Below, one piece after another: positions 9,944 through 29,396 of a stretch of DNA of 32,000 bases. The translations under genes and the position numbers were made by a program. Within the stretch, counting starts at the first letter, position 1, and each line of letters starts with the position of its first letter. Below the pieces are notes generated by a model, which made no database searches, was not told the origin of the DNA, and saw nothing but the letters and a program-made list of their open reading frames with translations. This DNA is from Nostoc punctiforme PCC 73102 (GTDB lineage: Bacteria > Cyanobacteriota > Cyanobacteriia > Cyanobacteriales > Nostocaceae), in contig NC_010628.1 of assembly GCF_000020025.1 (NCBI RefSeq), positions 3,930,001 through 3,962,000 of the forward strand. Direction: 5' to 3'.

Positions 9944-12900
9944 ATGAGCCAAATGGAAAGTATCGACCAGCTATCACCATCCCAACGCGCCCTTTTAGCG
10001 TTGAAAGAACTGCGTGCCAAGATTGATGCAATGGAACGGGCAAAAACAGAACCGATCGCAATTGTTGGTATGGCATGTCGGTTTCCGGGTGGTGCTGACG
10101 ATCCAGAAACATTTTGGCAGATATTACGGGACGGTACTGATGCCATTGTAGAAGTGCCGAGCGATCGCTGGGATATCGATACATATTACGACCCCAACCC
10201 AGATAGCCCTGGTAAAATGTCTAGCCGCTACGGTGGTTTTTTAAAGCAAGTAGATCGATTCGATGCCGAGTTTTTTGGGATCTCGCCACGGGAAGCAATT
10301 AGCATCGACCCTCAACAGCGTTTGCTATTAGAAGTCAGTTGGGAAGCTTTAGAAAATGCTTGTCAACCTCCTTCTGAACTTATGGGTAGTTCAACGGGGG
10401 TGTTTGTCGGTGTTACTACCAATGATTACACCCGCTTTTATGCCCAAGCGGGGGAACAGGGAATTGATGCTTATCAGGGAACAGGTAGCGCTTTTAGTGC
10501 AATGGTTGGTCGTCTTTCCTTTGTTCTGGGTTTTCAAGGGCCTTGTGTAGCACTGGATACTGCTTGTTCTTCTTCTTTGGTTTCCGTTCACCTGGCTTGT
10601 CAAAGCCTCCGCAACGGCGAGTGTGAGTTAGCTTTAGCCGGGGGAGTCAACCTGATTCTTACACCAGAAGCCAACATTATGTTCTCCAAGGCGAGAATGA
10701 TGGCAGCAGATGGACGTTGTAAAACCTTTGATGCCGCAGCTAACGGTTACGTGCGAGGAGAAGGTTGTGGCATAGTCGTACTCAAACGCCTTTCTCAAGC
10801 ACAAGCCCAAGGAGATAGAATCCTGGCGGTAATTCGCGGTTCAGCGGTCAATCAAGATGGTCGCAGCAGTGGGTTAACAGTACCCAACGGCATCGCTCAA
10901 GAAAACTTGATTCGGCAAGCGATCGCTAATGCTAAAGTACAACCACAGCAAGTAAGCTACGTTGAAGCCCACGGTACAGGGACATCTTTAGGAGATCCGA
11001 TAGAAGTAGAAGCGATCACTGCTACTTTAGGAAAAGAGCATACTACAGATAGACCTTTGGCGATCGGTTCTGTCAAAACCAACATCGGTCATTTGGAATC
11101 GGCTGCTGGCGTTGCAGGTTTGATGAAGGTGGTGTTGGCACTACAACATCAACAAATCCCACCCCATCTACATCTAAACCAACCTAACCCGTTGATTCCT
11201 TGGTCAGAACTGCCTTTAACAATTCCCACAACTCTTACACCTTGGCAAACCAACGGTGAAACTCGAATCGCTGGGGTAAGTTCCTTTGGATTTAGCGGCA
11301 CAAATGCCCACGCCATATTAGAAGAAGCACCTTTGGAGGAGGCAGGGAGAGCAGGGGAGCAGGGGAGCAGGGGGGCAGGGGGGCAGGGGGGCAGGGGAGA
11401 AGAAATTAGAAAGCGTCCTTTACATCTATTAACTCTGTCAGCCAAACATCCTCAAGCCTTACAGCAACTCGCTCAAAATTACATCAAGTACTTCTCATCC
11501 CATCCAGATATAACCCTTGGTGATATCACTCACACTTCACAAATTGGTAGAACACACTTTAGTCATCGCCTCGCCATTATTGCCCCTGACCATCAGCAAA
11601 TGCAACAACAGTTGCAAACCTATGTAGACAATAGTGAAATCATCGGTATTCATCACGGACATAGCAGCCAGCAAACCAAAAAAATTGCTTTCCTCTTCAC
11701 TGGACAAGGTTCACAATACCGCAATATGGGTCGGCAATTGTATGAAACTCAACCAAGTTTCCGCCAAACCCTTGACCAATGTGACACCCTACTGCAACCT
11801 CTACTAGGTGAGTCAATTTTATCGGTTATCTTCAGTGACAACTCAGAAAGCGATCGCCTCAACCATACCGCATATACCCAAGTTGCGTTATTCGTCATAG
11901 AATACGGACTTGCCCAACTGTGGCTATCCTGGGATATCCGTCCCACAGCAGTTGTAGGACACAGCGTCGGTGAATATGTCGCTGCTTGTATTGCTGGTAT
12001 TTTTTGTTTAGAAGACGCACTGAAATTAATTGTCCAACGTGCTTCTTTGATGCAAGCCTTACCCCAAGGTGGAGGGATGGCAGCAGTATTCGCTACTGTA
12101 GAACAAGTTAGACCTTTAATTGCTGACTATCTGCAACAATTGAGTATTGCAGCGATTAATGGCGAACAAAGTATTGTCTTATCTGGAGAATTAGAGATAC
12201 TCAATTCGGTACTGCAAAAACTAGAAAGCCAAGGCATTGAAACTAGAAAATTGCAAGTATCTCATGCCTTCCACTCGCCCTTGATGCAGCCGATGTTGGC
12301 GAAGTTTGAGCAAGTGACAGCAACAGTAAAATATCAACAGCCGAAATTAGATATTGTCTCGAATGTCACAGGCAAGATTGTCAGACAACAGGAAATGTCA
12401 AATGCGGCGTATTGGGTAGAACATATCCGAGCGAGTGTGCAATTTGCTGCTAGTATGCTGGCATTGTATCAAGCAGGATATGAGGTGTTTGTCGAGGTGG
12501 GGTCGCATCCGACACTGTTGGGGATGGCACGGCGTGAGTGTCCAGAAGTTTTGGAGGAAAAGGGGTTATGGCTGGCTTCACTGCGAAAAAGCCGGGGAGA
12601 TTGGCAGCAGTTGTTAGATTCAGTGGCGCAGTTGTATGTGGCTGGGGTGGAGATTGATTGGCGAGGGTTTGAGGCTGATTACCTGCGTCATAAGGTGGTT
12701 TTACCGAATTATCCTTGGCAGCGTCAACGCTATTGGTTGCCTACTGCTACCACCAAGCCGACAGTTAGACAAATCAGCGAAAACCTACTGCATCCTTTAT
12801 TGGGTTATCAGTTGCGATCGCCTTCTCTCAAGGATATTGTTTTTGAAACTCATTTGAACACAGCTAGTTTACCTTTCCTCGATGACCACCAAATTTATGA

Positions 12901-15562
12901 CACGGTGGTAGTACCGGGAGCTTCGCATATTTCTATGTTGTTGCTTGCAGGTCAAGAAATTCTGGGAACAGGGGCAATTTCGCTGAATAACATTACATTT
13001 AGGGAAGCGCTGACGGTTGGCGATCGCCAAACCATTAATGTACAACTTATTTTGCAACCTGAAGCCGCAGGTAAATATAAATTTGAACTCTTTAGTTTTA
13101 ATAAACAAATAGATAACTGGTTGGTACACGCTACAGGACGAGTCAGCCAAGATGTAGGCGATATTGAAAAACCTGTATCTTGGGCTGAGTTACAGACACG
13201 CTGTTCCCAAATACTGGCTGGTTCAGATTTCTACGCCCAAGTTAGAGAACAAGGATTGCAACTTGGTCAGCGTTTCCAATGGGTAGAATCTATGTGGCGG
13301 TGTGATGGTGAAGCATTGTGCCAAATGCAATTTCCCCAAGAATTTGCAGATGAAATTAACACTTATCTTCTGTATCCGGGATTAATCGATTCCTGTTTTC
13401 AGTTCTTAGGCTTTGCTTTACCCCAAGAACGACGAGATAACCAAGTTTACGTGCCCTTTAGCATAAATCACTTTTATTTTTGCGAGTCGCCAGATTTTAA
13501 CAGCCGTTTGTGGTGTTACGGAAAGCTAAATTCTCAAACGAGTTCAACAGCAGGAATGTTCATCGGTGATATCTGGCTGCTGAATGAAGCGGGAGAACTA
13601 GTAGCATACATTGAGGGACTTTGCTTAAAGCAAGCACCGCGTCAAGCTTTGCTCAGAGCCAACCAAGCACCAACTCAGGAATGGCTGTATCAAATCCAGT
13701 GGCAACCAAAGTCTAGATTATCAGAACAATTACCTGCTATTTCCGGTCGTTGGCTAATTTTCACCGATGCTAATGGTATTGGTAGAGTATTGGCACAAAA
13801 ATTAGAATATCAAGGCAAAGTTTGCATCCTTGTTTCTATCGGTGAAATTTATCAACAAATTGCTGAAAGTCAGTTTCAAATCGACCCCAGTCAACCGCAA
13901 CATTTCCATCAACTCTTACAAGATGTGGGGTCAGAGAATACACCATTGCACGGTATTATTCATCTCTGGAGTCTACTGGAAACCGAACAAACAAACTATC
14001 TAACGAGTTGCGGCAGTACTATCTACCTGTTGCAAGCCTTATCCAAATTATCAAACTGTCAAGCACGATTGTGGCTGTTTACCCAAGGCAGTCAACCTGT
14101 TGGTGATGAATTGACAATGAACAGTCTGACTCAAGCGCCTCTGTGGGGACTTGGGCGAGTAATTGCCATTGAGTATCCAGCAAATTGGGGCGGTTTGGTA
14201 GATATTGATACTAATAATTCTCCAGAACAGACAGCAGAGTTAGTACTAGGGGATATCTTACAGCCAGAGTCAGAAGATCATCTGGCTTTTCGCAATCATG
14301 AACGTTATGTGGCTCGTTTAGTTCGGGCAAAGCCTCAAGTATCAACACAACCTGTAAGATTTTCTGCCGATGCTACTTACCTAATTACTGGGGGATTAGG
14401 CGCACTGGGGCTAGAAGTTGCTCGTTGGATGATAAAGCAGGGAGTACAAAACTTAGTTTTAGTTGGTCGTCGTCCGCCTTCTGTAACTGCGTTGAATGCT
14501 ATTCAAGAGATGGAACAAGCAGGGGTTCAGGTGCAGGTAATACAGGCAGATATTACCGATTTCAACCAAGTTAAACAACTGCTGTCACCCTGCAAATCTC
14601 AACTGCGCGGCATTATCCATGCAGCTGGAGTGTTGAGTGATCGCATTATCTTACAGCAAACCTGGGAAAGTTTTACTCAAGTAATGGCTCCCAAAATTCA
14701 GGGAGCCTGGAATTTACACCATTTAACTCAGGATATATCGCTGGATTTCTTTGTAATGTTTTCCTCAGCCGCCTCTTTGTTGGGTGTAGCCGCACAGGGG
14801 AACTATGCAGCTGCAAATGCCTTTTTAGATGCCTTCGCCTACTACCGCCATTCTCAAGGACTACCTGCACTCAGTATCAACTGGGGAGCTTGGGCAGAAG
14901 TAGGGATGGCAGCAACCTTAGACCGCAGTCTGTCTGTAGGAGTGGAACGGATTGGAATTGAACAGGGATTACAGGTATTAGAGTCGTTGCTGAGTCGAGC
15001 CGATATGCCACAAGTAGGTGTGATTCCTGTCAATTGGCAAACCTTCCTCAAACAGTATCGCGCTGGTAAAGTACCGCCACTGCTCCAAGATTTTGCTGAG
15101 TATACCCAACCCGAAGAGAAATCAGAAACTACCCAAAGCACAATTCTGGAAAAACTGCAACAAGTTTCTGACGACAAACGACAGTCTTTGCTGCTAACCC
15201 ACGTCCGCAAACTGGCTGCGAAAGTGTTGAGACTCAACTCTTGGCAAAACCTTGATGCCGACAAACCCTTAATTGAAATGGGTCTCGACTCACTCATGGC
15301 GCTGGAGTTACGAAACGTTCTGGAAAATAGTTTGGCTTGTTCCTTACCAGCCACATTGTTATTTGATTATCCGAGTCTGCAAACTTTAGTGAATCATTTA
15401 ATCCAAGATGTGATGTCGTTGTCCAAATTAGAGGACTCATCATCTGCACCATCGCCAGAAGAGAGTGAACCATTAATCTCCCTGGAGGATTTAACCAGGA
15501 TGTCGGAAGCAGAAACAGAATTGCTACTCCTGAAAAAACTAGAACTGATAGATGGTAACTGA
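9944..15562 (+). CDS. Type I modular polyketide synthase (module 3: docking-KS-AT-DH-KR-ACP-docking)
   Basis: 1872-aa ORF. KS Cys 10565-10567. AT Ser 11963-11965 plus [20 protein letters not shown] (His CAC 12887-12889) and [18 protein letters not shown] (LxD), S/Y/N. ACP GLDSL (Ser TCA 15290-15292). Confidence 0.95.
10052..11329 (+). other. Module 3 KS domain
   Basis: [39 protein letters not shown]. Confidence 0.85.
11341..11400 (+). repeat. In-frame octanucleotide tandem repeat (GCAGGGGR)x6 plus a degenerate leading unit, in the KS-AT linker of module 3
   Basis: 11351-11398 parses exactly as gcagggga gcagggga gcaggggg gcaggggg gcaggggg gcagggga. It encodes ...[16 protein letters not shown]... 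Confidence 0.9.
11651..12673 (+). repeat. 1023-bp tract, copy B, nucleotide-identical to 6901-7923
   Basis: See copy A. Identity ends at gag|agc (7923/7924) versus gag|gct (12673/12674), and begins at catcacggac (6901 / 11651). Confidence 0.9.
11687..12658 (+). other. Module 3 AT domain (malonyl-type motifs)
   Basis: Nucleotide-identical to the module 2 AT. GHSVGE, HAFH. Confidence 0.85.
12782..13639 (+). other. Module 3 DH domain
   Basis: [25 protein letters not shown]. Confidence 0.8.
13676..14908 (+). other. Module 3 KR domain (LxD, B-type)
   Basis: [25 protein letters not shown]...AQGNYAAAN. Confidence 0.8.
15176..15409 (+). other. Module 3 ACP
   Basis: [18 protein letters not shown]. 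Confidence 0.85.
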
Positions 15563-18500
15563 GATGAGCAAAAGCAACGAGCGAGTTGAGGAATTATCCC
15601 CTTTAAAACGAGCTTTACTGGCATTAGAAACAATGCAAGGCAAGCTGAACCGTCTGGAATCGAAAAAGACAGAACCAATTGCGATCGTTGGGATGGGATG
15701 CCGTTTTCCTGGCGGTGTTAATAATCCTCAGACTTTTTGGCAGTGCTTGCGCGATGGTGTGGATGCAATGCAAGAAATTCCTGGCGATCGCTGGGATTTG
15801 GAAACATACTACAATGTCGATGCTGATGCTGCTGGCAAGATGTACACTCGTCACGGTGCTTTCGTTGATGACGTTGATAAATTTGATGCTGATTTTTTCA
15901 GTATTTCTCCCAGGGAAGCCGCATTTATTGACCCACAGCAGCGCTTGTTTTTAGAGGTATGTTGGGAAGCCCTAGAGCAGTCAGGAGAACGACCAGACCA
16001 ACTAGCAGGTAGTCGTACAGGGGTATTTGTCGGTGTGATGTACGCCGATTACTCGCGGTTACAGGGTACTGTAATTGATGCCTACAGCAGTACTGGCAAT
16101 AGCATGAGTGTGGTATCAGGACGGGTTTCTTACCTGCTGGGTTTGCAAGGGCCGAGTGTCACTTTAGATACAGCTTGTTCTTCTTCCTTGGTAACTGTAC
16201 ATTTAGCTTGTCAAAGTTTGCGCTCCGGTGAATGTAACTTGGCTTTGGCGGGTGGGGTGAGTCTGATGTTGATTCCCGACAACAACATTACCCTATGTCG
16301 CACCCGCGCTTTATCCCCTACGGGGCGTTGCAAAACCTTTGATGCTGATGCTGACGGCTTCGCGCGTGGTGAGGGATGCGGCACGATCGCTCTCAAACGC
16401 CTCAGTGATGCGATCGCAGATGGCAACCCAATCTTAGCGGTAATTCGCGGTTCTGCCGTTAATCAAGATGGACGCAGCAACGGTTTGACTGCTCCCAATG
16501 GCCCGGCTCAACAGGCAGTGTTACGAGAAGCTTTAGCCAACGCTGGAGTAAAGCCCCATCAAGTCAGTTATGTGGAAGCGCATGGTACAGGTACGCCTTT
16601 GGGAGACCCGATTGAGGTGAGTTCACTGGCGGCTGTTTTGGGTGAAGGGCGATCGCCAAATCACCCCCTAGCTTTGGGTTCAGTGAAAACCAATATTGGA
16701 CATTTAGAATCAGCAGCTGGTGTGGCAGGTTTAATCAAAGTTGTCCTGGCAATGCAGCATCAGCAAATTCCGCCCCATCTCCACTTCCAAAAGTTGAATC
16801 CTTACATTTCTTGGGGGAATCTGCCGATTTCGATTCCCACAGAACTCACTCCCTGGGATAGTGGCACAGAACGACGCATTGCTGGGGTGAGTTCCTTTGG
16901 CTTTAGCGGTACAAATGCTCATGTGATACTCGAAGAAGCACCGCTTTTGCCCACAGAGCCAGCTTTGGTATCAGTAAAAGATTATCTTTTACCTCTATCT
17001 GCTAAAAATCCCGCCGCACTCTTGGATATGGCGCAAGCTTACCGAGCTTTTCTTCCAGGTAAAACTAACTTGCTGGATATTGCTTATACTACTAGTCTGC
17101 GCCGTCCTCATCATAAGCATCGCATCGCTTTGGTAGGGCAGTCTATCGAGCAATTGACAGCAGCACTTGACGCTTTTGTAGAAGGTGAATCTCACCCCAA
17201 TTTAGTACCCAGTAACCCACATTCAGATGATTTATCTGGCTTGGTTTTCGTGTTTTCTGGACAGGGGGCGCAATGGATAGGGATGGGACGGCAACTCTTG
17301 GCACAGGAGCTTGTGTTTCGAGAGACTATACAAGAGTGCGATCGCATCTTAAAATCCCTCACTCATTGGTCACTACTCCAAGAACTAGCAGCACCAGAGG
17401 ACATTTCTCGCCTGCAAGATACTGAGGTTGCCCAACCTGCCATTTTAGCGATCCAAGTTGCCCTAACTGCCTTGTGGCGTTCTTGGGGCATTGAACCTGC
17501 GGCGGTTGTGGGTCATAGTCTCGGTGAAATCACTGGTGCTTATGTAGCAGGTGTCTTTAGTTTAGAAACAGCTTTGCGGATTGTTGTGCAACGAGCTTCC
17601 TTGATGCAGCAGGCTACAGGCAAAGGCAAAATGGCAGCTATCGGGATGCCTTGGCAAGAACTCAAACCCTGGCTAGAGGAATTTCCTGGTTTAGCGATCG
17701 CCGCTATTAACAGCCCCGCTTCTACCGTCGTTGCTGGTGATGCAACTGCTTTAGAAACTTTGTCTCAAAAACTACAAGCCCAGGAAATATTCTGTCGATT
17801 GCTGCGGGTCAATTATGCCTTTCACTGTCCACAGATGCAGCTTTACAGCGAGGAACTGGTTAACCTTTTGGCAGGATTGCAACCGCAAGTTGCCCAATTA
17901 CCCCTCTTCTCCACAGTTACCGGAACCAGCAGCGAAGGACGAGATTGGGATGCTGCTTATTGGGGGCGGAATATGCGATCGCCTGTGCAATTCAGTCAGG
18001 CTATTGAAAACTCGGTATATGAAGGATATACCTGTTTTGTTGAGGTCAGCCCTCACCCCGTCTTATCCCAGAATATTCAAGAATGTTTGCAGCACACAGG
18101 CAAAGCTGGAATTGTCCTCGCCTCTATGCACAGAGAGCGACAAGAGCGATATTTTTTACTCAGCGAGCTAGGTCGCCTCTACACCTTGGGCTATCAACCA
18201 CGATGGCAGGCTTTATATCCAGAAAATAGAAGGTGCGTTTTACTACCGACTTATCCCTGGCAACATCAACGCTACTGGTTAGAAGGTAGCAATTCTTTAC
18301 CAGCAAGAAGAACATCACGACAGCCGTTATTAGGGGAATCCTTGCCTAGTCTGGCGCACCTGCCAGAAATGCGGATTTGGCAAACACAATTGGATTTGCG
18401 ATCGCTTCCTTACCTCAACGACCATCGGGTACAAGGTGTGATGGTGTTACCTGGGTCAGGTTATGTAGAAATGGTATTAGCTGCTGCAACTGAGATATTT

Positions 18501-21143
18501 GGTGCAGGTAAACATACCCTAGAAGTTTTGCACTTTCAACAAGGTCTATTCATTCCCGAAGCAGAAACTCAGACTGTACAAATTTGCTTGCAACCAGGAA
18601 ACACACCAGACACTCTCAACTTTGATTGTTACAGCCGTCTTAGTATAAACCCAGAGACTAAATGGCGGCATCATGCCAGTGGTACGGTGTGCCGAGGTGA
18701 CGGGGAAATCACACCCACCATTCCCGTAACGGTGGCAGAAATTCAAGCCCGTTGTCAGGAAGTTATCTCTGGCACACAGCACTATCAACAAATGGCAGAA
18801 CAAGGTTTGCTTTATGGAGCCAGCTTTCAAGGCGTAGAGCAAATCTGGCGACGAGAAGGGGAAGCCCTCGGTCGCATCCACCTACCAGCATCTTTACACG
18901 CAGAAATCGCCAACTACCAAATTCATCCCGTTATTTTGGATGCCTGTTTTCAGGTAATAGCTTTGGCGACTCCCTTAGCTAACCCTGATGCTGAGGCAGA
19001 AGGAGCTTATTTGCCAGTACGTCTAGACAAACTCCGACTTTATCAGCAACCGGATGCCACAGGTTTGTGGGCACACTTGCAGTTAAAACCTGTAGTAGAA
19101 ACAGATGCCTTTGCTGCTGAGTTAGTCCTATTCAACGACCAAGGACAACGGATATTAGATGCTGAATGCTTGCGTATTCAGAAACTTGATAGTCAAAGTG
19201 AAAATAATTCTAGCGATTGGTTCTATGAGATTAGCTGGGAAAGACTTTTAAGACAGACAGACAGGGAGACGGAAGGACACAGCGAACAAAATCAAGGCTA
19301 TTGGCTGATATTGACAGACAGACAGGGAATTGGAGAGAATCTCAGCCAACAATTGCAGCAGCAAGGCGGAAATTGCATCTTAGCTTTTGCAGGTGAAACT
19401 TATCAGAAACAGGATTCACAGCATTATCAAATTCAGCCAAATTGTTTAGATGACTTCAAGCAACTCCTACAAACTGTTTCTAGTGAATGCTTGGGAATAG
19501 TGCATCTGTGGAGTTTAGATATCACTCCAGCAGAATTGACTACCCTAGCTTCACTAACTGGTGACGACAATATGGGAGATCGTCCACTTGGCGATCGCAA
19601 TTTGGGGTGTATCAGCACTCTTCATTTAGTCCAAGCATTGGCAGAAACAGGTTGGCAAAATACACCCCGTCTCTGGCTAGTTACCCGTGGCGCACAGCCT
19701 GTAGATTCGAATCTTAGTATTGCCCAATCGCCTCTATGGGGACTGGGACGCGTCATTGCTCAAGAACATCCAGACTGGCGTTGCTCAATGGTGGATTTGG
19801 CACCAGTACCTGAACCATCAGAAATTCCATCACTTTTACAGCTACTACAAGCAGACGATGTGGAAAATCAAATCGCTCTGCGTGGGGATGTGTCCTACGT
19901 TGCCAGACTGAAGCGATATTTACCCAGTTATTCAGAACTACCAAACTTCCACCCCCAAGCAACCTACCTCATTGCGGGAGGTCTGCGGGGTCTGGGTTTA
20001 CAAGTAGCTACTTGGATGGTGGAGAGGGGAGCTAGATATTTGGCATTGATGGCGAGAAGTCAGCTGACACCTGAAACCTTAGAAGTTTTACAAACTCTGG
20101 AAACTGCTGGAGCAAAAATTAAGGTGCTTCAGGCGGATATCAGCCAGGCTGAGGAAGTAGCTAAAGCGATCACTCAATTAGACCAAGATATGCCACCATT
20201 ACGGGGTGTAATTCACAGCGCTGCTGTTTTGGATGACGGCATTCTCTTACAATTAACCCCAGAAAGGTTGCACAAAGTCATGCAACCCAAGATAGAAGGA
20301 GCATGGAATCTCCACACACACACCCTCAACAAACCCCTAGATTTCTTTGTGCTGTTTTCTTCAGCTGCTTCACTCCTGGGTTCTGCCGGACAAGGAAACT
20401 ATGCGGCGGCCAATGCCTTTTTAGATGGGTTAGCTCATTATCGGCAAAGCCAAAATCTGCCTGCACTCAGTATCAACTGGGGTGCGTGGGCAGAAATAGG
20501 TTTAGCAGCAGCCCAGACAAATCGGGGCGATCGCATGGCATCTCTGGGTTTTAGTAGCATTCTCCCACAGCAAGGCTTAGATATTTTAGGACACCTGCTA
20601 ACGGATAAAACCGCACAATTAGGTGTGATTCCCATCAATTGGGCAAAAGTCTTACGTGCTAATCCAGCCGTTATCAAGATGCCTTTGTTTCAATTGCTGA
20701 CAGAGGTCTTTAGTAGCTCTGGAGAAATCGATACTGACAAAAGCACAAATTTTCTTTCCCGTCAAGCACTTTTAGCAACTCCATTAGATGAGCGTCAACT
20801 ACTTTTGGAAACCTACTTCCACGAACAAGTGGCTAGGGTGCTGCGAATGCCAGCCTCGAAACTCGATCGCCATCAGCCCCTCAACAGCCAAGGACTAGAT
20901 TCTTTAGTGGCGGTGGAGTTAAAGAACAAACTTAAAAACGACTTGGGCATTGATTTACCGATGATTCGCTTCATTCAAGGCCCTAGTATTGCCCAGTTAT
21001 CTGCACAAGTACTCACTCAAATTACACAGGAAATGTCATCAGTATCATCTGTCCTTGTATCTCCTCCTCATCTGAGGAGCAATTCTGCTAGACCTGTTGA
21101 ATTAGCCACCAGTAATCAAGAATGGGAGGATGGCGAACTATGA
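15552..21143 (+). CDS. Type I modular polyketide synthase (module 4: docking-KS-AT-DH-KR-ACP + acidic C-terminal tail)
   Basis: 1863-aa ORF. The ATG at 15552 overlaps the end of the upstream gene (stop TGA 15560-15562); an in-frame alternative ATG lies at 15564. KS Cys TGT 16176-16178. AT GHSLGE (Ser AGT 17517-17519) with [19 protein letters not shown] (His CAT 18423-18425) and DACFQ. KR LDD, K/S/Y/N. ACP GLDSL (Ser TCT 20901-20903). Clearly more diverged from modules 1-3 than they are from each other. Confidence 0.93.
15672..16940 (+). other. Module 4 KS domain
   Basis: [39 protein letters not shown]. Confidence 0.85.
17244..18206 (+). other. Module 4 AT domain (divergent; GHSLGE + YAFH)
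   Basis: [32 protein letters not shown]. Confidence 0.8.
18321..19187 (+). other. Module 4 DH domain
   Basis: [34 protein letters not shown]. Confidence 0.8.
19221..20501 (+). other. Module 4 KR domain (B-type)
   Basis: [25 protein letters not shown]...GQGNYAAAN. Confidence 0.78.
20784..21017 (+). other. Module 4 ACP
   Basis: [18 protein letters not shown]. Confidence 0.85.
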
Positions 21144-24100
21144 GCGCGAGTCAACTTCTGGATGATTTGACGCAAAATGGAGTGTATTTGTGGGCTGAAG
21201 GCGACAAATTGCGTTTTCGTGCCCCCAAAGGTGTGTTAACGGAAGAACTGCGCGATCGCTTGACTGCTCACAAGCTAGAATTGCTGGCAATTTTGCAAAC
21301 GCCCGTGCCAACGGCAGAATTCACCCTAGTTCATGCTCCAGAGGAACGTTATCAGCCATTCCCGCTCACTGACTTACAACAAGCTTATGCTTTGGGTGGT
21401 AGTGATTTTTTCGATTTGGGTAACGTGTCTGCTCATTTCTACGTAGAATTTGCCGTTACTAATCTTGACATCGAGCGATTGAATTTGGCTTGGCAACGTT
21501 TAATTGAGCGTCATGAGATGCTACGAGCAGTAATTTTACCGGATGCCCAACAGCAGATTCTCGAAACTGTGCCTCCCTTTGCTGTGGAAGTCATCGACTT
21601 ACGGGGTCAAAAAGAGGCGGAGGAGCAAATAGCAGCGATGCGCCAGCAAATGAAGGATAATGGCCCGTCACTCGATAAATATCCTTTATTTGAGGTGCGG
21701 GTACAGTTATTGGATGAGGAGCGATGTCTAGCGACAAGACGCTTCGCGTCTACGCAACTCCACATCAGCATTAGTTTATTAATCTGCGATGCTTTAAGTG
21801 GTGGGTTTGTCTTCCAAGATTTATATCAGTTTTACCTCAATCCCCAAGCACAGTTACCAGCCCTGAATCTCTCTTTCCGAGATTACATTCTGACGCTGAA
21901 TCAACGCCGTCAAACAGCAGCCTACCAAAAAGCCCGTGATTACTGGTGGCCAAGGTTATCTGAAATTCCCCCAGCCCCGGAATTGCCCCTAGCCAAAAGT
22001 CCAAGTGCTATTGAGAAACCCACTTTTACCCGTTGGCAAGGGCAACTAGCACCAGCAGTTTGGCAGCAATTCAAAACACGAGTCAGTCAGCTGGGACTAA
22101 CACCGGCGGCTGCGATTTGTGCTGCTTATGCCACCATCCTCACCACTTGGAGCAAAAACCAAAAACTCACAGTTAACATCCTCTACTTTAACCGCGAACC
22201 ATTGCATCCACAGGTGTATCAGGTTTTAGGTAACTGTAGTTCTACCCTACTGCTGACAGTTGATCACACCCAAAGCGAAAGCTTCGCCGCCCAAGCCAAA
22301 CGCTTACAAGAGCAGTTGTGGAGTGATTTGGAACATACGGCGGTGACTGGTGTGGAGGTATTGGGCGAACTCAATCGGATGCAAGGGGGAACTGCTAGAG
22401 CTGCAATGCCTTGTACTTTTGCTAGTGCTTTGGGTTTGGGAAACCGTGACACTCAAACTAATGCTGCGGGTGAGCAGGATTGGCAGGTAATTTGTAACGG
22501 CTTGTTGCAAACGCCTTTCGTCCTCCTCGACCACCAAATTGTTGAAGAAAACGGCGCTTTGCTCCTGAATTGGGATGCTGTAGAAGAAGCTTTTCCCCCT
22601 AATTTAATGGCCCAAATGTTTGATGCTTACCAACTGCTATTGCATCGTTTGGCTGAGTCAGACAATACTTGGCAGACTACCACAGAATGGTTAGTACCTA
22701 AAGCACAACTACAACAACGAGCAGCCGTCAATGCTACCAAAACTACCATTTCCACCCAGTTGTTGCATGAGTTGTTTGTTGAACAAGCGACTCAACACCC
22801 AGAAAAATTAGCGATCGCTGCTTCTCAATTGACTTTGACTTACGCCGAACTCGATCACCTATCTAACTACATTGGTAGACAACTGCGAGACTTAGGCGCT
22901 CGTCCCAATCAGTTGGTAGCCGTGGTGATGGAAAAAGGTTGGGAGCAGTTAGTCGCTGTTTTGGGAATTCTCAAATCAGGTGCAGCTTACTTACCAATCG
23001 ACCCCAGCCTACCCCAAGAACGTCTTAACTGGCTGCTGGATAACGCTGAAGTAGCGATCGCTTTTACCCAACCTCGGCTAGAAGTAAATCTCAGCTTCGC
23101 GACTCAAGTCAAATGGCTAACAATTGATGACTCAACCCTGGTACAAGCCTCTACCAGTCAACCTTTACCATCAATACAAACCCCAGAAGATTTAGCCTAC
23201 GTCATCTACACCTCCGGCTCAACCGGCATACCCAAAGGTGTCACCATTGACCATCGCGGTGCAGCTAACACCATCCTCGATATTAATCAACGGTTTGGCA
23301 TGACAGCAGAGGATCGGGTATTTGCTATTTCCTCCTTGAGCTTTGACTTGTCAGTGTATGACATATTCGGAACGCTCGCAGCTGGTGGTACAATTATCAT
23401 GCCCGATGCTCAAGGCAGCCGCGATCCGGCGCATTGGCTGGATGTTCTCCAACGGGAGCAGGTGACAGTCTGGAACTCTGCACCAGCGTTAATGAAATTG
23501 TTAGTCGAATATGCAGGCGATCGCTGCGATCGCTTATCGTCTTCCATACGGTTGGTGATGATGAGTGGCGATTGGATTCCGGTAACTCTACCGGAGCAAA
23601 TTCACTCCTTGGGTAACGATGTCCAAGTAATCAGTTTGGGAGGAGCTACGGAAGCTTCCATCTGGTCAATTTTCTATCCTATCGAGGCAGTTGACCCTAG
23701 CTGGACTAGCATCCCCTACGGTAAACCCCTGAGTAACCAAAGCATCCACATCCTTGATGAAGCCTTGCAACCCCGTCCTGATTGGGTTCCAGGACAAATT
23801 TACATCGGTGGTGTCGGTTTAGCTCAGGGATATTGGCGAGATGCAGCCAAAACCCAAGCCAGCTTTATTCAGCATCCCCGCACGGGAGAGCGTCTTTACT
23901 GCACAGGGGACTTGGGACGCTATCTGCCGGATGGTAACATCGAGTTTTTAGGAAGAATTGATTTTCAGGTTAAAATTCGCGGTTATCGAATAGAAATAGG
24001 CGAAATTGAAACTGTCTTGCAGCAACACCCAGCCATCCGTTCTGTTGCTGTTTCAGCCGTTGGCGAACAACGGGATGACAAGCAATTGGTAGCTTATATC

Positions 24101-25345
24101 GTTTTTGAGCAGGAACAATCAATTACTTCATTAGAATTGCGTAGCTACCTCCAGCAGAAGTTACCAGAATACATGATTCCCTCAATGTTCATGTTTATGG
24201 ACAGCTTGCCCTTGTCATCCAACGGTAAAGTCGATCGCCGTGCTTTACCTGACCCAGAACCAAGTCAAGCAGATTTAGAGGCAATTGTCGCACCCAGAGA
24301 CAGCTTAGAGTTACAACTTGTACAAATTTGGCAAGAAATCTTGAAATTGCCGGAGGTAGGTATTACTAATAATTTCTTTGAACTGGGTGGAACTTCTATT
24401 CAAGCTGTGCGCTTGATGACGCAAATTCACAAACTGTTTGCTCAGAATTTGCCCTTGTCTACGTTGTTCCAAGGTGGGACTGTTGAGCATTTAGCGCGGA
24501 CTCTGCGGGAATCGTCAGATAGTTCAGTGCCTTGGTCGCCTTTAGTCAGTATCCAGCCCTCTGGTTCTCAGCCGCCTTTCTTCTGCGTTCATCCAGCTGG
24601 TGGTAATGTGCTTTGCTATATGGATCTCTCCCGTCGCTTGGGTGCAGATCAGCCGTTCTACGGTCTTCAGGCTGTGGGCATGGATGGAGAACAACCACCG
24701 TTCACCACTATCGAAGATATGGCAACTGATTATATTGCCGCCATCCGCACCGTTCAACCACAAGGGCCATACTCTATCGGTGGCTGGTCTTTCGGGGGAA
24801 TTGCAGCCTTGGAAATTGCCCAGCAATTGCGCCAGCAAGGTCAAGAAGTCAATATGCTGGTACTTATCGACTGTCCCGCACCCTTATCTGGCGAAGATTT
24901 GGACGAAGCTACCTTAGCAGCTTGGTTTATCCAAGACTTAGAAGGTCGATTTGATCTTGATGCTACTAGATTGCAGCAGTTACAGCAACTAGATACCGCA
25001 CAACAGTTGAATTACATCCTAGAACAAGCCAGACTACTGCACTTAGTTCCGCCAGATGCTGGAGTTGAACAAGTCAACTATTTGTTCGAGGTGTTCAAAT
25101 GCAATATGCGAGCGATCGAATCCTACACACCGCGTCTCTACGAGGGGCTAGCAACACTGCTGCGGGCAGAAAACCAACCACTAGAAAATCCCACCAACCC
25201 AGCTTTAGATTGGCACAAATTACTCACCAATTTGGAAGTGCGTTGGATTCCAGGCAACCACTACACGATGGTCAGAGAACCAGATGTGCAAACATTGGCA
25301 ACCCAATTGAGGGCTTGTCTGGCAGTTATGAACAACTGGAAATAG
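21140..25345 (+). CDS. NRPS termination module (TubC-N-type docking domain, Cy-like condensation, A(Cys), PCP, TE)
   Basis: The ORF track starts at 21122. I prefer the in-frame ATG at 21140, which forms an ATGA overlap with the PKS stop (TGA 21141-21143). Motifs: [13 protein letters not shown] (Cy-type C1); A3 [16 protein letters not shown]; A4 [10 protein letters not shown]; [13 protein letters not shown]; NGKVDR; [14 protein letters not shown] (Ser TCT 24395-24397); TE GWSFGG (Ser TCT 24788-24790), LIDCPAP, PGNHYTM. Confidence 0.93.
21143..21295 (+). other. TubC-N-type (beta-hairpin) N-terminal docking domain of the NRPS
   Basis: [52 protein letters not shown]. Recognised from the L..L...GV.LW.EGD.LR.RAP.G.L...L...L..HK.ELL..L pattern. 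Confidence 0.75.
21347..22666 (+). other. Cy-type (heterocyclisation-family) condensation domain, variant active-site signature
   Basis: [59 protein letters not shown]. The signature window reads [15 protein letters not shown] (a single Asp). Confidence 0.8.
22754..24241 (+). other. Adenylation domain, predicted cysteine-specific
   Basis: Specificity residues read by eye against GrsA numbering: D742 L743 Y746 N785 M813 S815 L839 I847 W848 K1036, giving DLYNMSLIWK. That is one position from the canonical Cys code DLYNLSLIWK. Confidence 0.8.
24293..24505 (+). other. PCP (thiolation) domain
   Basis: [18 protein letters not shown], Ser at 24395-24397. Confidence 0.85.
24569..25321 (+). other. 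Thioesterase domain
   Basis: [34 protein letters not shown] (Ser/Asp/His). Confidence 0.85.
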
Positions 25346-25411: not shown

Positions 25412-26095
25412 GTGGAACTAATAACACAATTTCAGTTTGCAGTGGCTTTCCCAGAACAACTACCACAAGTAGATGTCAAAGCCATTCTCTGCTTGGTTCA
25501 TTCACTGTATTGGCTATTAATTGTCAATGCATCCATCATTAGACGGCGCAAACTCAATAACCCAGAGTCATTTGTTGACACCTCCACAAAAGAACCAGTT
25601 GCTAGTGAGTCATCTATCACTCCTCAAGGTCCACCAGCACTATTTCTCACCAGTGCTACCTACGGTATCTTTTACATTTTGCTAGCAATTTGGTGGGCAA
25701 ATCCCGATGCGCTAGGATTTTTTGTATTTCAACCGACTTTTCCGATTCAAGCTTTAGGAATTGCTATTCTTGGTTTGGCATTAATTGTGAAAGTATGGTC
25801 TTTTTGGGTTTTTCGCAGTTGGCGGTTATTTCCCCACATCGATCCCGGTCATCAACTTGTGACCAAAGGGCCTTATAGTTTTGTCAGACATCCACTTTAC
25901 TTCGCTTTTCAACTTCTGTTTTTTGGCTCGTTTCTAATTGTTCCAAGACTGGGATTTTTACTGCAAGTAATTGCTAATTTCTTAGCTCATGATTTTCGCT
26001 GCCGAGTTGAAGAAAAAATATTGCTGCAAGCTTTTAATAATGCATACGAGGCATATAAAAAACGCACTCGTCGTTTATTGCCTTGGGTGTATTAA
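25412..26095 (+). CDS. Polytopic membrane methyltransferase, ICMT/PEMT superfamily
   Basis: 227-aa ORF starting at a GTG, with GGAG (25401-25404) 7 nt upstream, 67 nt after the NRPS stop on the same strand. It has several hydrophobic segments. The C-terminal block LVTKGPYSFVRHPLYFAFQLLFFG...RVEEKILLQAFNNAYEAYKKRTRRLLPWVY matches the signature I recognise from isoprenylcysteine carboxyl / phospholipid methyltransferase family proteins. Confidence 0.8.
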   Translation: MELITQFQFAVAFPEQLPQVDVKAILCLVHSLYWLLIVNASIIRRRKLNNPESFVDTSTKEPVASESSITPQGPPALFLTSATYGIFYILLAIWWANPDALGFFVFQPTFPIQALGIAILGLALIVKVWSFWVFRSWRLFPHIDPGHQLVTKGPYSFVRHPLYFAFQLLFFGSFLIVPRLGFLLQVIANFLAHDFRCRVEEKILLQAFNNAYEAYKKRTRRLLPWVY

Positions 26096-26111
26096 TATAG
26101 TCTAATGGCGT

Positions 26112-26139
26112 AGGGATATATTTTAAAAAATATGTCCCT
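26112..26139 (+). terminator. AT-rich hairpin/palindrome 17 nt downstream of the methyltransferase stop
   Basis: AGGGATATA(tttt aaaaaa)TATGTCCCT: a 9-bp stem with one G-U pair, extendable through the A/T tract. No clean U-tail. Confidence 0.3.
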
Positions 26140-26191
26140 TGGCTAAATTCTTAACTTTGCAAAACTAGACTTTATAGATTTAAGTTAAATT

Positions 26192-27514
26192 ATGAAATAT
26201 CAGTTTTTTGCCAAAACTATAAACTTGAAATTTGTTGTAATTTTAGGCGTTGCGGCTTTAGCTACTTGTGCTACTTCCTTTTATTTAGTTTTAAATAATC
26301 AACTAGAAAATCAAAAGCGATCGCAGCAGGCTATTGCAGCTAATAATAAAATTCAAGCAAGTCCCAATGCGGTTGCTGCTAGGGGGTATCTAGAGCCTAA
26401 AGGAGAAGTAATTAAGCTATCTGCTCCTACTTCTATACAAGGTGAAGGTGTACGACTTGCAAAGCTACTTGTCAAACAAGGAGACAAGGTAAAAACAGGT
26501 CAAGTAGTGGCAATTCTGGATAATCAAGAACGTCTGCAAGCAGCTTTGGAACAGGCAAAAACTGAAGTTAATGTTTCTCAAGCTAAACTAGAACAGACTA
26601 AAGCAGGCGCGAAAACAGGAGATATTAATGCTCAAACAGCAAAATATCAACAAACAAGAGCAGAACTAGAAGGTCAACTCACAATTCAAAGAGCAACTAT
26701 TGCCAATTTAGCAGCTCAGTTACAAGGAGAAAAGAATTCTCAAGCCGCAACCATTAAGAGGATTCAAGCTGAACTGCAATATGCTCAAACTGAATGCGAT
26801 CGCTATAATGCTTTGTATCAAAAAGGAGTAGTTTCAGCTTCTCAACGAGATAGCACTTGTCTACAAAACAATACTGCTCAAGAACAACTTGCAGAAGCTG
26901 AATCTAATTTACAAAAAATTATTACTACTAGAACAGAACAAGTCAAAGAAGCACAAGCCAATTTCAATCGCACATTAGCAACCTTAAAAAAGGAAGTTGA
27001 AGAAGCCAAAGCAACTCTAAATGCCACCGCAGAAGTCCGCCCTGTAGATGTCAATGTGGCAGAATCAGAGCTAAAAAATGCCCAGGCTGCTGTGAAAAAA
27101 TCTCAAGCAAACTTAAATTTAGCTTATGTGCGATCGCCTAAAAATGGACAAGTTTTAAAAATTCACACATGGGCTGGTGAAGTTATTAGTAACGATGGAA
27201 TTATCGAGTTAGGTCAGACAGAACAAATGTACGCGATCGCAGAAGTTTATGAAACCGATATTAGTAAAGTTCGTCTTGGTCAACAAGCAACTGTTACCAG
27301 TGGTGGATTAATCGAAGAACTTAAAGGCAATGTAGATGAAGTTGGTTTAAAAGTTGGCGTTTTAAATGCTTTAGGAACCGATCCTGTTGCGGATGCAGAT
27401 ACTAGAGTTGTCGAAGTGAAAATTCGTCTGTCTCCACAATATAGCCGAAAAGTTGCTAACCTAACTAATTTAGAAGTCAACGTCATGATTAATACTGAAT
27501 CACCCTCAAATTGA
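26192..27514 (+). CDS. DevB-like HlyD-family membrane fusion protein (ABC exporter adaptor)
   Basis: 440 aa with an N-terminal TM anchor (FVVILGVAALATCATSFYLVL). The motif VAARGYLEPKGEVIKLSAP...VKQGDKVKTGQVVAILDN is followed by a long Q/A/E-rich coiled coil and a C-terminal beta-barrel region. This is the typical DevB/HlyD layout. Confidence 0.88.
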   Translation: MKYQFFAKTINLKFVVILGVAALATCATSFYLVLNNQLENQKRSQQAIAANNKIQASPNAVAARGYLEPKGEVIKLSAPTSIQGEGVRLAKLLVKQGDKVKTGQVVAILDNQERLQAALEQAKTEVNVSQAKLEQTKAGAKTGDINAQTAKYQQTRAELEGQLTIQRATIANLAAQLQGEKNSQAATIKRIQAELQYAQTECDRYNALYQKGVVSASQRDSTCLQNNTAQEQLAEAESNLQKIITTRTEQVKEAQANFNRTLATLKKEVEEAKATLNATAEVRPVDVNVAESELKNAQAAVKKSQANLNLAYVRSPKNGQVLKIHTWAGEVISNDGIIELGQTEQMYAIAEVYETDISKVRLGQQATVTSGGLIEELKGNVDEVGLKVGVLNALGTDPVADADTRVVEVKIRLSPQYSRKVANLTNLEVNVMINTESPSN

Positions 27515-27710
27515 CACCTTTTTTATCTATAAATTTTCAAAAAATAAACAAAATAAATATTATTATACTATTTCTTTGTGTGCTTCGCGTCTATGCGGTT
27601 CGTTTTTTTTCTTATACTTCTCTCCTAATATGGTTTAGTGCATCTTAATACAGAATTGGTATTACGTCGATCTCTTTTTTAGTTTGTTGTAAATTTTAAA
27701 TATAAACATT

Positions 27711-28883
27711 ATGCGTAGCAAAAAAATACCAGTAGCTTGGTTACAACTTAGATATCAAAAAGCCAGATTAATTATTGCTTTATTAGGAGTAGTTTTTGCT
27801 GTAGTAATTGTCTTCATCCAACTAGGCATTCGAGATGCTTTATTTGACAGCGCTGTTCGTTTGCACCAAGGTTTACAAGGAGATTGTTTTTTGATTAGTC
27901 CTCGTTCTACAGCTTTAATTGCTATGGAAAGTTTTCCAGAACGACGTTTATCTCAGTCTTTAGCATTTCCAGAAGTTAATTATGTTGCACCGATATATTT
28001 AGGCTTTGGTCAATGGAAAAATCCTGAAACTAAAGACTATTGGCGGAATATATTTGTGATTGGTTTTGATATTCGCTATCAGGTCGTAGATTTTGCTGGA
28101 GTTGAGGAAAATATCAACAAACTAAAAATTCCAAATGTGGTTTTATTTGACCGCAGTTCTCGTGCTGAATTTGGGCCTGTGGTTGCAGATTTTGAGCAAA
28201 AAGGTAATGTAGAAACAGAAATTGGGAACCGTTCTTCAAATCGCCGGGTTAAAGTAGCTGGCCTATTTAATTTAGGTACATCTTTTGGTTCAGATGGAAA
28301 TTTAGTCACCAGTCATCTTAACTTCTTAAGGATTTTTAGCTCTCGTTATAAAGGATTAATTGATATTGGTTTAATCAAATTAAAACCAGGATATGATGTC
28401 CAAGAGTTTACAGGAAAATTAAAAACGTTTTTACCTAAAGATGTAAAAGTATTATCAAAAGAACAACTTATTGCTTTTGAAAAAAATTACTGGCAAACTA
28501 GTACAGCTATTGGATTTATTTTTAACTTAGGGGTAGGATTAGGAATTGTGGTAGGTATTGTAGTCGTATACCAAATTCTCTATACCAATGTTTCTGAACA
28601 TTTACCTCAATATGCCACTTTAAAAGCAATTGGTTATCAACAAAGATACCTTTTATCTATAGTTTTACAGCAAGCATTATTAATTGCAATTTTAGGCTAC
28701 ATACCGGGGTTTTTAATTTCTATAATTCAGTATGAATTTGCTAAAAAAGCTACACTTCTACCTATTGTAATGACAATAGATAGGGCTGCTTTTGTGCTGA
28801 TAGCAACTGTTATTATGTGTTTTGTTTCGGGCGCAACAGCCGTGAGAAAACTCAAACAAGCAGATCCGGCTGATATTTTTTAG
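27711..28883 (+). CDS. DevC-like ABC exporter permease (FtsX/MacB-type)
   Basis: 390 aa. The N-terminus IPVAWLQLRYQKARLIIALLGVVFAVVIVFIQLG is DevC-like. A large periplasmic loop is followed by a C-terminal FtsX-type 3-TM bundle (ATLKAIGYQQRYLLSIVLQQALLIAILGYIPGF...). Confidence 0.88.
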   Translation: MRSKKIPVAWLQLRYQKARLIIALLGVVFAVVIVFIQLGIRDALFDSAVRLHQGLQGDCFLISPRSTALIAMESFPERRLSQSLAFPEVNYVAPIYLGFGQWKNPETKDYWRNIFVIGFDIRYQVVDFAGVEENINKLKIPNVVLFDRSSRAEFGPVVADFEQKGNVETEIGNRSSNRRVKVAGLFNLGTSFGSDGNLVTSHLNFLRIFSSRYKGLIDIGLIKLKPGYDVQEFTGKLKTFLPKDVKVLSKEQLIAFEKNYWQTSTAIGFIFNLGVGLGIVVGIVVVYQILYTNVSEHLPQYATLKAIGYQQRYLLSIVLQQALLIAILGYIPGFLISIIQYEFAKKATLLPIVMTIDRAAFVLIATVIMCFVSGATAVRKLKQADPADIF

Positions 28884-28911
28884 TAGAGATGTAGCATTGC
28901 AACATCTCTAC
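28883..28911. terminator. Hairpin between the convergent DevC-like and SRPBCC genes
   Basis: GTAGAGATGT (28883-28892), 9-nt loop agcattgca, ACATCTCTAC (28902-28911): a perfect 10-bp stem starting in the devC-like stop codon. No U-tract follows, so the terminator role is uncertain. Confidence 0.4.
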
Positions 28912-28946
28912 AGGATTTATACGCATCGTGATTAATGTGAAATAGA

Positions 28947-29396
28947 TTAGTCTGCTGTTTTTTCTAAGTAACCTTGTCTAATACTTTCAGCTTCAGCTAT
29001 TTCCCTGATATTCTCCATCACTCTCGGTAAAACTTTTTTAAACTTTTTGCCGAGAAACCAACCAAATAAAAATGCCAAGGCTCCTTTAAATGAGACTTCA
29101 TGAGTAAATGATGTACTACCTGCATGAATATTCAAGTAGCGATATACATTTAACTTGCAAAATGGTAACTGAATTGTGAATGTATAACTCTTTCCTGGGC
29201 TAAACTGCGAAATTGTAAATTTAGAAGTTGTACCTGTTTTCGGTGTTAATTTACCTACCGCATTAAGCTTAAAAGGACTCTCAAGATATGAATCACACAC
29301 TTCGGTATCCCATACTGACCAATTATCTACATCAGTCCAAATCGCCCAAATTCTTTCAGGTGTGGCAAACGTTGTGACAGTATTGCTAAACTTCAT
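28947..29396 (-). CDS. SRPBCC (START/Bet v1-like, polyketide_cyc2-type) family protein
   Basis: 149 aa. N-terminus ...TFATPERIWAIWTDVDNWSVWD... plus the size and overall pattern are typical of SRPBCC ligand-binding proteins. GAGAG lies just upstream of the ATG on the minus strand. The gene sits 49 nt downstream of the YdhR-like gene, so the two are likely an operon. Confidence 0.7.
   Translation of the reverse strand: MKFSNTVTTFATPERIWAIWTDVDNWSVWDTEVCDSYLESPFKLNAVGKLTPKTGTTSKFTISQFSPGKSYTFTIQLPFCKLNVYRYLNIHAGSTSFTHEVSFKGALAFLFGWFLGKKFKKVLPRVMENIREIAEAESIRQGYLEKTAD

Follow-up and report, generated by a model that had tools for sequence, protein, structure and literature searches.

Does a heterocyclization (Cy) domain still close a thiazoline ring when both the first aspartate of its core motif and the threonine of its catalytic pair have been replaced? 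The question is raised by the last megasynthase gene in a 32,000-nt stretch of Nostoc punctiforme PCC 73102 (NC_010628.1, positions 3,930,001 to 3,962,000; hereafter the window), which encodes a nonribosomal peptide synthetase (NRPS) that follows a series of polyketide synthase (PKS) genes and carries a Cy domain before a cysteine-type adenylation (A) domain. By aligning this Cy domain with solved structures and with a large survey of its family, we have identified it as a member of a rare and distinct subclass of Cy domains, judging by its sequence, with replacements at seven positions of the Cy core. We favour the reading, at a probability of about 0.4, that a thiazoline is still formed by a PchE-like Asp/Gln/Thr mechanism, although the sequence alone cannot tell a ring from a free thiol or another product end.

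Identity of the Cy domain and its seven replaced positions

The terminal NRPS gene and the parts of it that matter for the argument are as follows.

21122..25345, + strand: terminal NRPS open reading frame (ORF), 1407 aa, with TubC_N docking, Cy, A, peptidyl carrier protein (PCP) and thioesterase (TE) domains (ORF list, Pfam)
21347..22711, + strand: heterocyclization-type (Cy) domain, aa 76-530 (phmmer against PDB, AlphaFold2, Foldseek)
21398..21400, + strand: G93, at the position of the alpha1 Arg (AYxxGR; HMWP2-Cy2 R1509) (survey alignment)
21773..21799, + strand: C3 core motif S218-LLIC-D223-AL-S226, canonically DxxxxDxxS (alignment)
22175..22195, + strand: N352-I-L354-Y-F356-N-R358, with Asn, gating Phe and Arg kept and Thr replaced by Leu (survey alignment)
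22229..22243, + strand: G-N371-C-S373-S, canonically the GDFTS core motif (survey alignment)
22418..22426, + strand: F433-A434-S435, canonically FTS (ungapped alignment to BmdB, EpoB and HMWP2)
22505..22537, + strand: L462-Q-T464-PFVLL-D470-H-Q472, with Ser replaced by Leu at 462 (alignment)
22778..24229, + strand: adenylation domain, code DLYNMSLIWK, Cys type (motif-anchored extraction)
24314..24505, + strand: PCP (carrier) domain (Pfam PP-binding, 6e-16)
24575..25276, + strand: type I thioesterase domain, nucleophile motif GWSFGG (Pfam Thioesterase, 9e-32)

Pfam divides the protein into TubC_N (aa 11-59), Condensation (111-529), AMP-binding (553-905), AMP-binding_C (961-1036), PP-binding (1065-1128) and Thioesterase (1152-1385). 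In a phmmer search of the PDB the Cy domain matches EpoB Cy best (8e-93), followed by HMWP2 Cy (6e-84) and BmdB Cy2 (1e-76). Its AlphaFold2 model, built from 86 sequences, reaches a pLDDT of 92.5 and a pTM of 0.92, and the best 19 matches of this model in a Foldseek search of the PDB are all Cy domains (TM 0.73-0.84, with 0.81-0.84 for those at the top), which places the domain in the Condensation superfamily nearest to the solved Cy domains. The motifs FPLTxxQxAYxxGR, NxTLFNR, GDFT and SQTPQVxLD are still recognisable in it, with replacements at positions 93, 354, 371, 373 and 462. The A-domain code is one residue off DLYNLSLIWK, and no Ox/nitroreductase domain was found by Pfam in the NRPS, in its neighbours or anywhere in the window. 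Both features had been called by an earlier sequence-only reading of this DNA, and both hold.

The strings and coordinates quoted in that reading are all present where it had placed them: a 13-residue string at aa 80 (nt 21359-21397), SLLICD at aa 218-223 (nt 21773-21790), S226 of SLLICDALS ending at nt 21799, PPAPELPLA at aa 283, a ten-residue string at aa 356, PCTFASAL at aa 430, and a ten-residue string that begins at aa 463 and gives D470. In the phmmer alignments the query SLLICD lies on DLINVD of EpoB, DNLLLD of HMWP2 and DALLMD of BmdB, so that the first Asp of DxxxxDxxS is Ser218, with D223 and S226 kept. A lone Asp in this motif had been claimed from the letters, and the three solved domains bear it out; an alternative register that started the motif at D223-A-L-S-G-G is rejected, because D223 falls on the second Asp in all three structure-based alignments. 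The catalytic Thr, for which the local sequence PCTFASAL had been said to need a real alignment, is now assigned as well: the query MPCTFASAL aligns without gaps with MPIVFTSML of BmdB, FPVVLTSAL of EpoB and MPVVFTSAL of HMWP2, so that the dyad Thr (BmdB T1196, in FTS) is Ala434 (FAS). D470 in LLDHQ, already noted as present, aligns with LLDHQ of EpoB and YLDNV of BmdB and thus takes the place of the catalytic Asp (BmdB D1226, EpoB D449), and the Gln after it (Q472) is also present.

To place these departures within the family, we compared 435 full-length Cy domains and ~95 from a metagenome scan, about 530 in all; 351 domains with the canonical DD/TD pattern, among the 435, form the reference set. 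The profile search of the representative set was ranked by summed score, which favours multi-Cy proteins, and single domains were re-scored. Asp occupies the position of S218 in 100% of the canonical domains. Ser is never found there (0/351) and occurs in 10 of all 435 domains, six of them in the clade of the query, which argues that S218 is not a product of chance. The position of G93 is Arg in 398 of ~429 surveyed domains outside the clade, and seven clade lineages carry G, Q, F, H, R, Q and Q. Position 354, a Thr in 87% of the canonical domains and in 341 of ~429 outside the clade, is L or M in 25/25 clade sequences. Positions 371 and 373, canonically D (91%) and T (86%), are N and S in all clade sequences, and the query has A at position 434 (T in 100% of the canonical domains) and L at position 462 (S in 63%). 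Within the clade L354, N371, S373 and L/I462 are fixed, and positions 93, 218 and 434 are relaxed (G/Q/R/F/H, S/D/N/C and A/T/V/G, respectively). The query retains T83, Y89, D223, S226, N352 (EpoB N335), the gating Phe356, R358, S435, T464, D470 and Q472, of which D470, Gln472 and Thr464 are invariant in 25/25 clade sequences.

The structure of HMWP2-Cy2 indicates where these residues act. Its D1620 is the first Asp of DxxxxD, a structural residue that forms a salt bridge to R1509 in helix alpha1; T1753 (query L354), together with T1830, flanks the donor opening and comes near the acceptor thioester; D1770 is the conserved floor-loop Asp, the D of GDFT, of which T1772 is the T; and T1830 is the dyad Thr (query A434) (PMC9547227). 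With G93 and S218 both replaced, both partners of the R1509-D1620 salt bridge have been given up in the query. The L462 site is the Ser that stands two residues ahead of the QTP Thr in canonical Cy domains. By these alignments the domain departs from the norm further than the sequence-only reading had stated.

Among the retained residues, Gln472 is present in 40/40 Cy domains that lack the dyad Thr (15 of PchE type and 25 of the variant clade) versus 388/464 that contain it. It varies in 76/464 (16%) of the Thr-containing domains, and the comparison gives a Fisher p of 0.002, although the Thr-less domains represent effectively two lineages only. This is suggestive of a tie between the invariance of Gln472 in Thr-less domains and cyclization.

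A rare subclass and the modules that carry it

Members of the clade are found in Nostocaceae, in Acidobacteriota metagenome-assembled genomes and in unassigned metagenome contigs, at 42-55% identity to the query. In a tree built with the 13 signature columns masked, the group with Ser at 218 (S-type; 18 sequences and one with Cys at that position) is monophyletic, and a group of five sequences that keeps R93 and D218 (D-type), together with L354, N371, S373, A434 and I462, is its immediate neighbour. A looser definition of the variant (L/M/I at 354 and N371) is not monophyletic and takes in two distant N-type outliers. Three further domains (P0252 aa 1146-1607, P0261 aa 1170-1628 and P0177 aa 2938-3381) carry N or C at 218 and V or G at 434 together with M/L354, N371, S373 and L462, and the Cy of P0252 also sits in a terminal module; two of the three fall outside the main clade, so that the signature may have more than one origin. 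A second profile search, of a set of 5.8 billion proteins, returned no further clade members.

The nearest genomes are those of Nostoc sp. DedVER02 and N. calcicola FACHB-3891 (Cy-domain identity 95%) and of a Trichormus sp. (91%), all of which share the gene order. S218, A434 and all other signature residues are invariant in the four Nostocaceae orthologues, which are 89-96% identical. Of the three large domains the Cy domain is under the tightest constraint, its dN/dS being 0.05 as compared with 0.14 in the A domain. These values indicate a domain under strong purifying selection, an active enzyme rather than a relic, and a decaying or inactive domain is rejected on the same grounds. Within these orthologues a 9-aa insertion, CLATRRFAS (aa 202-210, nt 21725-21751), is found just ahead of the strand leading into SLLICD; the window and N. 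calcicola (L002) have it, Nostoc sp. DedVER02 (L001) and Trichormus (L003) lack it, and the AlphaFold2 confidence is lower around it.

No description of this Cy variant was found in the literature that could be searched. No characterised Cy domain with SxxxxD or SxxxxDxxS, thiazoline-forming or otherwise, was found there; nor was anything on Cy-A-PCP-TE modules or on uncyclized or inactive Cy domains that matches the variant, and searches for Nostoc thiazoline PKS clusters and for ICMT genes in biosynthetic gene clusters gave no description of this cluster. The subclass is thus apparently undescribed.

Of 14 complete loci, 12 have the variant Cy domain in a Cy-A-PCP-TE module with a homologous TE, and the other two have it at the end of an NRPS gene, so that the clade is almost always tied to a chain-ending Cy-A(Cys)-PCP-TE module; among the canonical Cy domains of these loci, 18 are terminal and 42 are not. 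The whole Cy-A-PCP-TE module is inherited together. What precedes the variant module differs among loci. It is preceded by a PKS module in the loci from Nostoc and in L040, L041, L074 and L049 of the D-type, and by another Cy-A-PCP module in six or seven loci. Upstream of it in L062 and L009 stand Cy-A-Ox-PCP and Cy-A-PCP-Ox modules, respectively, both confirmed by Pfam; in L043, L047 and L039 a ~1-kb gap between the A and PCP matches is consistent with an Ox insert, and in L024, and perhaps in the truncated L075, a Cy-A module precedes the variant.

Locus L009 (L009:5604-13195; metagenome contig JAABUQ010001958.1) is of particular value, since two modules follow one another in it, dock-Cy(canonical)-A-PCP-Ox and dock-Cy(variant)-A-PCP, whose protein sequences show 100% identity from QTPQVWLDHQ to the end of the A domain, with an extra identical block of 28 aa inside the Cy domain. 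This pattern points to a recent gene-conversion mosaic. As the two A domains are identical and the thiazole-forming module must load Cys, Cys must also be the amino acid on which the variant Cy acts.

Other genes recur beside these modules. Copper genes adjoin two S-type loci: a multicopper oxidase in L009 (L009:15465-17060, - strand) and, in L053 (L053:12812-18123, + strand), a protein of 1259 aa that combines Cu-oxidase_2 with DUF7482 and, after it, a PCuAC/SCO1/cytochrome c protein. They may hint that products of the clade bind copper. Export genes also recur, as MacB_PCD/FtsX-type permeases right after the TE in L005:14995-17439, L062:13867-16512 and L047:15804-18239; their counterpart in the window is the DevB/DevC pair at 26192-28883. 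In the D-type group the TE is followed by a luciferase-like monooxygenase (L061:5107-6083) or a protein with a flavin-reductase domain (L041:14508-15704).

The donor chain and the genes downstream

Four cis-AT PKS ORFs lie upstream of the NRPS gene, with the architectures KS-AT-DH-KR-ACP (cut at the start of the window), KS-AT-KR-ACP and then twice KS-AT-DH-KR-ACP. The last two of them, and the genes that follow the NRPS gene, are listed here.

9944..15562, + strand: penultimate PKS module, KS-AT-DH-KR-ACP (Pfam)
15552..21143, + strand: last PKS module, KS-AT-DH-KR-ACP, putative donor of the enoyl chain to the Cy domain (Pfam)
25412..26095, + strand: ICMT/PEMT-family membrane methyltransferase, 227 aa, 67 nt past the NRPS stop (Pfam, NCBIfam, PDB)
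26192-27514, + strand: DevB-type membrane-fusion protein (NCBIfam DevB, 7e-96)
27711-28883, + strand: DevC-type ABC permease (NCBIfam DevC, 3e-158)

No ER domain was found by Pfam in the four PKS ORFs. The last module has an intact DH motif (HxxxGxxxxP), and that of the penultimate module keeps His and Pro with Gly replaced by Asp. From these motifs it is plausible that the last two modules deliver a 2,4-dienoyl chain, in agreement with the dienoyl donor assumed in the sequence-only reading. In the AT of the last PKS module the motif is YAFH, which differs from both of the usual forms, HAFH and YASH. Successive megasynthase genes overlap at their stop and start codons, by 11 nt (15552-15562) and 22 nt (21122-21143), which suggests translational coupling.

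The methyltransferase matches Pfam PEMT (6.7e-12, 46.2 bits against a cut-off of 25) and ICMT (4.6e-8, 33.8 bits against 24). Its NCBIfam match to the isoprenylcysteine methyltransferase NF040696 (5.5e-19) scores 68.8 bits against a cut-off of 160, so that it is a family member and not an equivalog, and it further matches the ICMT of PDB 4a2n (2e-9) and, weakly, the thiol S-methyltransferase MddA (1e-5). ICMT enzymes methylate carboxylates of N-acylated cysteine, and MddA, of the same family, methylates a thiol; by analogy the enzyme fits a thiazoline, a free-thiol or a thioacid product alike. It is syntenic in L001-L003 and L008 and is not found in the other loci of the clade, and a part for it in a clade-wide chemistry is rejected since it is confined to Nostocaceae. 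The DevB/DevC pair is a probable exporter. Beyond it the cluster edge carries a YdhR-like monooxygenase (29446-29985, - strand), a TetR regulator (30013-30618) and a DDE transposase ORF (31282-31965, - strand) with partial matches to transposase profiles, and GC content falls from ~0.45-0.50 in the PKS/NRPS genes to 0.35-0.38 at 26001-32000 of the window.

Fate of the cysteine: ring, thiol or thioacid

In the reading that we favour, the Cy domain, docked by way of its TubC-type domain, would accept the 2,4-dienoyl chain that the ACP of the last PKS module carries and join it to PCP-bound L-cysteine. The Asp470/Gln472/Thr464 set would then still engage the thiol, as has been proposed for the Thr-less PchE Cy1, and ring closure with loss of water would give a 2-alkenyl-thiazoline-4-carbonyl thioester. 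The TE would hydrolyse this thioester, the neighbouring ICMT-family enzyme would methylate the product and DevBC would export it. The invariance of Asp470/Gln472/Thr464 suggests that the thiol is probably not left alone, which would be unexpected of a domain that only condenses.

The closest support comes from PchE Cy1 of pyochelin (PDB 7EMY/7EN1/7EN2), which like the query has Ala at the dyad Thr (VFAS) and keeps the QTP Thr, the Asp and the Gln. PchE Cy1 forms the hydroxyphenyl-thiazoline of pyochelin, and a cryo-EM study proposes that T474 (the QTP Thr) or Q482 acts in the role of BmdB T1196 (PMC8807600). A Thr to Ala replacement is therefore compatible with cyclodehydration, and the notion that this replacement proves its loss is contradicted by PchE and rejected. 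The structural role described for the first Asp, and the roughly half output left to a first-Asp mutant of PxbG Cy4, likewise count for a retained ring. About 3% of the surveyed Cy domains are without the catalytic Thr yet otherwise canonical-looking; 14 Cy domains at the N-terminal end of multi-Cy proteins (e.g. P0236 aa 108-560) are PchE-like, with Ala at the dyad Thr, Pro354 and Cys/Ser after the Ala. The PchE-type domains differ from the query in having Pro rather than Leu at 354 and in belonging to N-terminal ArCP-Cy parts of siderophore lines rather than to terminal modules, and the one PchE-type domain sampled (P0236_108_560) falls outside the clade of the query in the masked tree. A terminal Cy-A(Cys)-PCP-TE module of the same architecture is known from cyanobacteria in LynB6 and BarG (lyngbyapeptin and barbamide), whose likeness to the query is one of architecture; these modules are proposed to yield 2-thiazoline-4-carboxylic acids (PMC10127204), and they are followed by a diiron oxidative decarboxylase (LynB7/BarH) that is not in the window. 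EpoB Cy of epothilone (PDB 5T7Z/5T81), ~37-38% identical in the structural alignment, shares with the query the TubC-type N-terminal docking, the hand-off from PKS to NRPS and the conserved N335, D449 and next Gln. It differs in DLINVD, the alpha1 Arg, LNITLFNR, GDFTS and VLTS, and in lying within a non-terminal Cy-A-Ox-PCP module.

Several observations weigh against a retained thiazoline. Six or seven positions at which canonical domains are 86-100% conserved have been replaced in concert, and the new residues have in turn been conserved; concerted change of this kind, followed by fixation, usually marks a change of function. Neither of the two Thr residues described as flanking the donor opening and touching the acceptor is left (T1753 to L354 and T1830 to A434). 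PchE appears to be only a partial precedent: the PchE-type domains keep R93, D218, D371, T373 and S462, at which the query has G, S, N, S and L, so that they share with it only the Thr to Ala replacement. In six or seven assembly lines the variant has a canonical Cy-A-Ox module as its neighbour, and the two modules of L009 differ at every signature position, upstream of the breakpoint of identity. Since 18 canonical Cy domains are terminal as well, position alone does not demand the changes, and the signature as a mere requirement of terminal modules is rejected. Taken together, fixation, the presence of canonical Cy domains in the same assembly lines and the L009 mosaic speak for two functional types that selection holds separate. 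In AzsO and TlnC, moreover, a replaced dyad Thr accompanies non-canonical chemistry, and no clade member has a known product.

Where could such a change of function lead? One answer is that Cys is condensed and its thiol, driven by Asp470, attacks the amide without dehydration, followed by an N-to-S acyl shift and C-S (or C-N) cleavage that would release the polyketide as a thioacid (or amide); the TE would clear the three-carbon remnant from the PCP, and the ICMT/MddA-family enzyme could methylate the thioacid. We regard this sulfur transfer as unlikely. Its best precedent is TlnC of thiolactomycin, which resembles the query in a hand-off from a PKS ACP to the Cy domain, a Cys acceptor, a replaced dyad Thr and a retained catalytic Asp, and which makes a thiocarboxylate with Asn in place of the Thr, needing D140, its second DxxxxD Asp, and D394, its catalytic Asp, but not the residue at the Thr position (bioRxiv 10.1101/2024.12.18.629141). 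The query correspondingly keeps D223, D470 and Q472 and loses the Thr. TlnC has, however, an intact DxxxxD, Asn rather than Ala, a separate A-PCP, a P450 partner and no TE described, in contrast to the SxxxxD, the Ala-Asp pair and the A-PCP-TE in cis of the query, and neither a P450 (by Pfam) nor a cysteine lyase is found in the window. In the photoxenobactin enzyme PxbG, a terminal Cy4-T-TE module does not keep Cys as a ring either: the Cys sulfur ends in thioacid/dithioperoxoate termini, the TE is proposed to clear the T-domain remnant, and the first-Asp mutant D2771A of Cy4 about halves the output (PMC9396620). The bond of the clade to a TE-containing terminal module is in keeping with this precedent; Cy4 itself has a canonical DxxxxDxxS. 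AzsO of azaserine, which has a docking domain, a Cys-like A prediction and a replaced dyad Thr, performs non-canonical chemistry that gives an ester bond (PMC10445470), and differs from the query in an intact DxxxxD, in having Asn for both Thr and Asp where the query has A434 and D470, and in loading Ser. TlnC, AzsO and PxbG are likened to the query by their published descriptions. The methyltransferase family does include the thiol S-methyltransferase MddA, but in this clade the enzyme belongs to the Nostocaceae loci only.

The sequence-only reading had instead proposed that the domain only condenses, giving N-(2,4-dienoyl)-L-cysteine with a free thiol; this product may then receive a methyl group at its carboxyl or its sulfur, or its thiol may add to the dienoyl part. 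Its view of the domain as atypical has been strengthened by the seven departures; the free-thiol product, which we consider improbable, is not derivable from the sequence, because of the PchE precedent, the structural role described for the first Asp and the half yield that its PxbG mutant retains, the invariance of D470, Q472 and T464 and the lack of any characterised SxxxxD Cy domain in the searches. For condensation alone speak the loss of the dyad Thr, of Thr354, Ser462 and Asp371 and of the Asp218-Arg93 salt bridge, as does the reported need of BmdB for T1196 and D1226, both crucial for heterocyclization (PMC8807600). An ICMT-family gene after the NRPS gene would suit an N-acylated cysteine carboxylate, and the copper-handling genes beside L009 and L053 would suit thiolate metal binders. 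The invariant Asp470/Gln472/Thr464 set speaks against it, the more so as Gln472 is dispensable in the 16% of ordinary Cy domains noted above; an untouched thiol would hardly account for such conservation. The changes might, at the other extreme, reflect lineage drift in a mobile Cy-A-PCP-TE cassette, compensated within a network of structural contacts among the DxxxxD loop, helix alpha1 and the floor loop, with no effect on the chemistry beyond the fit to partner domains. The clade is monophyletic with the signature columns masked, the module travels as a whole, positions 93, 218 and 434 are relaxed, and even in the crystal structure of HMWP2-Cy2 the R1509-D1620 salt bridge is open (PMC9547227). 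The fixed L354, N371, S373 and L/I462 and the strict separation of both Cy types in the L009 mosaic argue otherwise, and we consider drift quite improbable; what probability it has is counted within the figure of 0.4 for a thiazoline, and a remainder beside the three product readings goes to other outcomes.

What appears to be new here is a sequence class of Cy domain, a variant within the known Cy family, that is easily recognised by seven signature positions, occurs in several phyla, is under strong selection and belongs to the final module. It is conceivable, at somewhat less than even odds, that the S218/L354/N371/S373/A434/L462 signature marks a new chain-terminating class that ends without a thiazoline, in which Cys serves as a sacrificial sulfur donor to give a thioacid or is deliberately kept as a C-terminal thiolate. 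The products of such a class could be soft-metal (copper) binders, as the nearby copper genes and the MacB/DevC-type exporters would allow. Prediction of NRPS/PKS products equates a Cy domain with a thiazoline or oxazoline, and TlnC, AzsO and CaeA2 are three experimentally studied exceptions in which small changes in the Cy active site redirect the chemistry. If the present class does end without a thiazoline, the thiazolines called for it by genome mining would be wrong for the whole clade. The variant clade also provides natural material for learning what the DxxxxD loop, the alpha1 Arg and the floor-loop network contribute to Cy catalysis. For Nostoc itself, the outcome at this Cy domain sets the predicted structure and reactivity of an orphan metabolite, which would carry a thiazoline, a free thiol or a thioacid.

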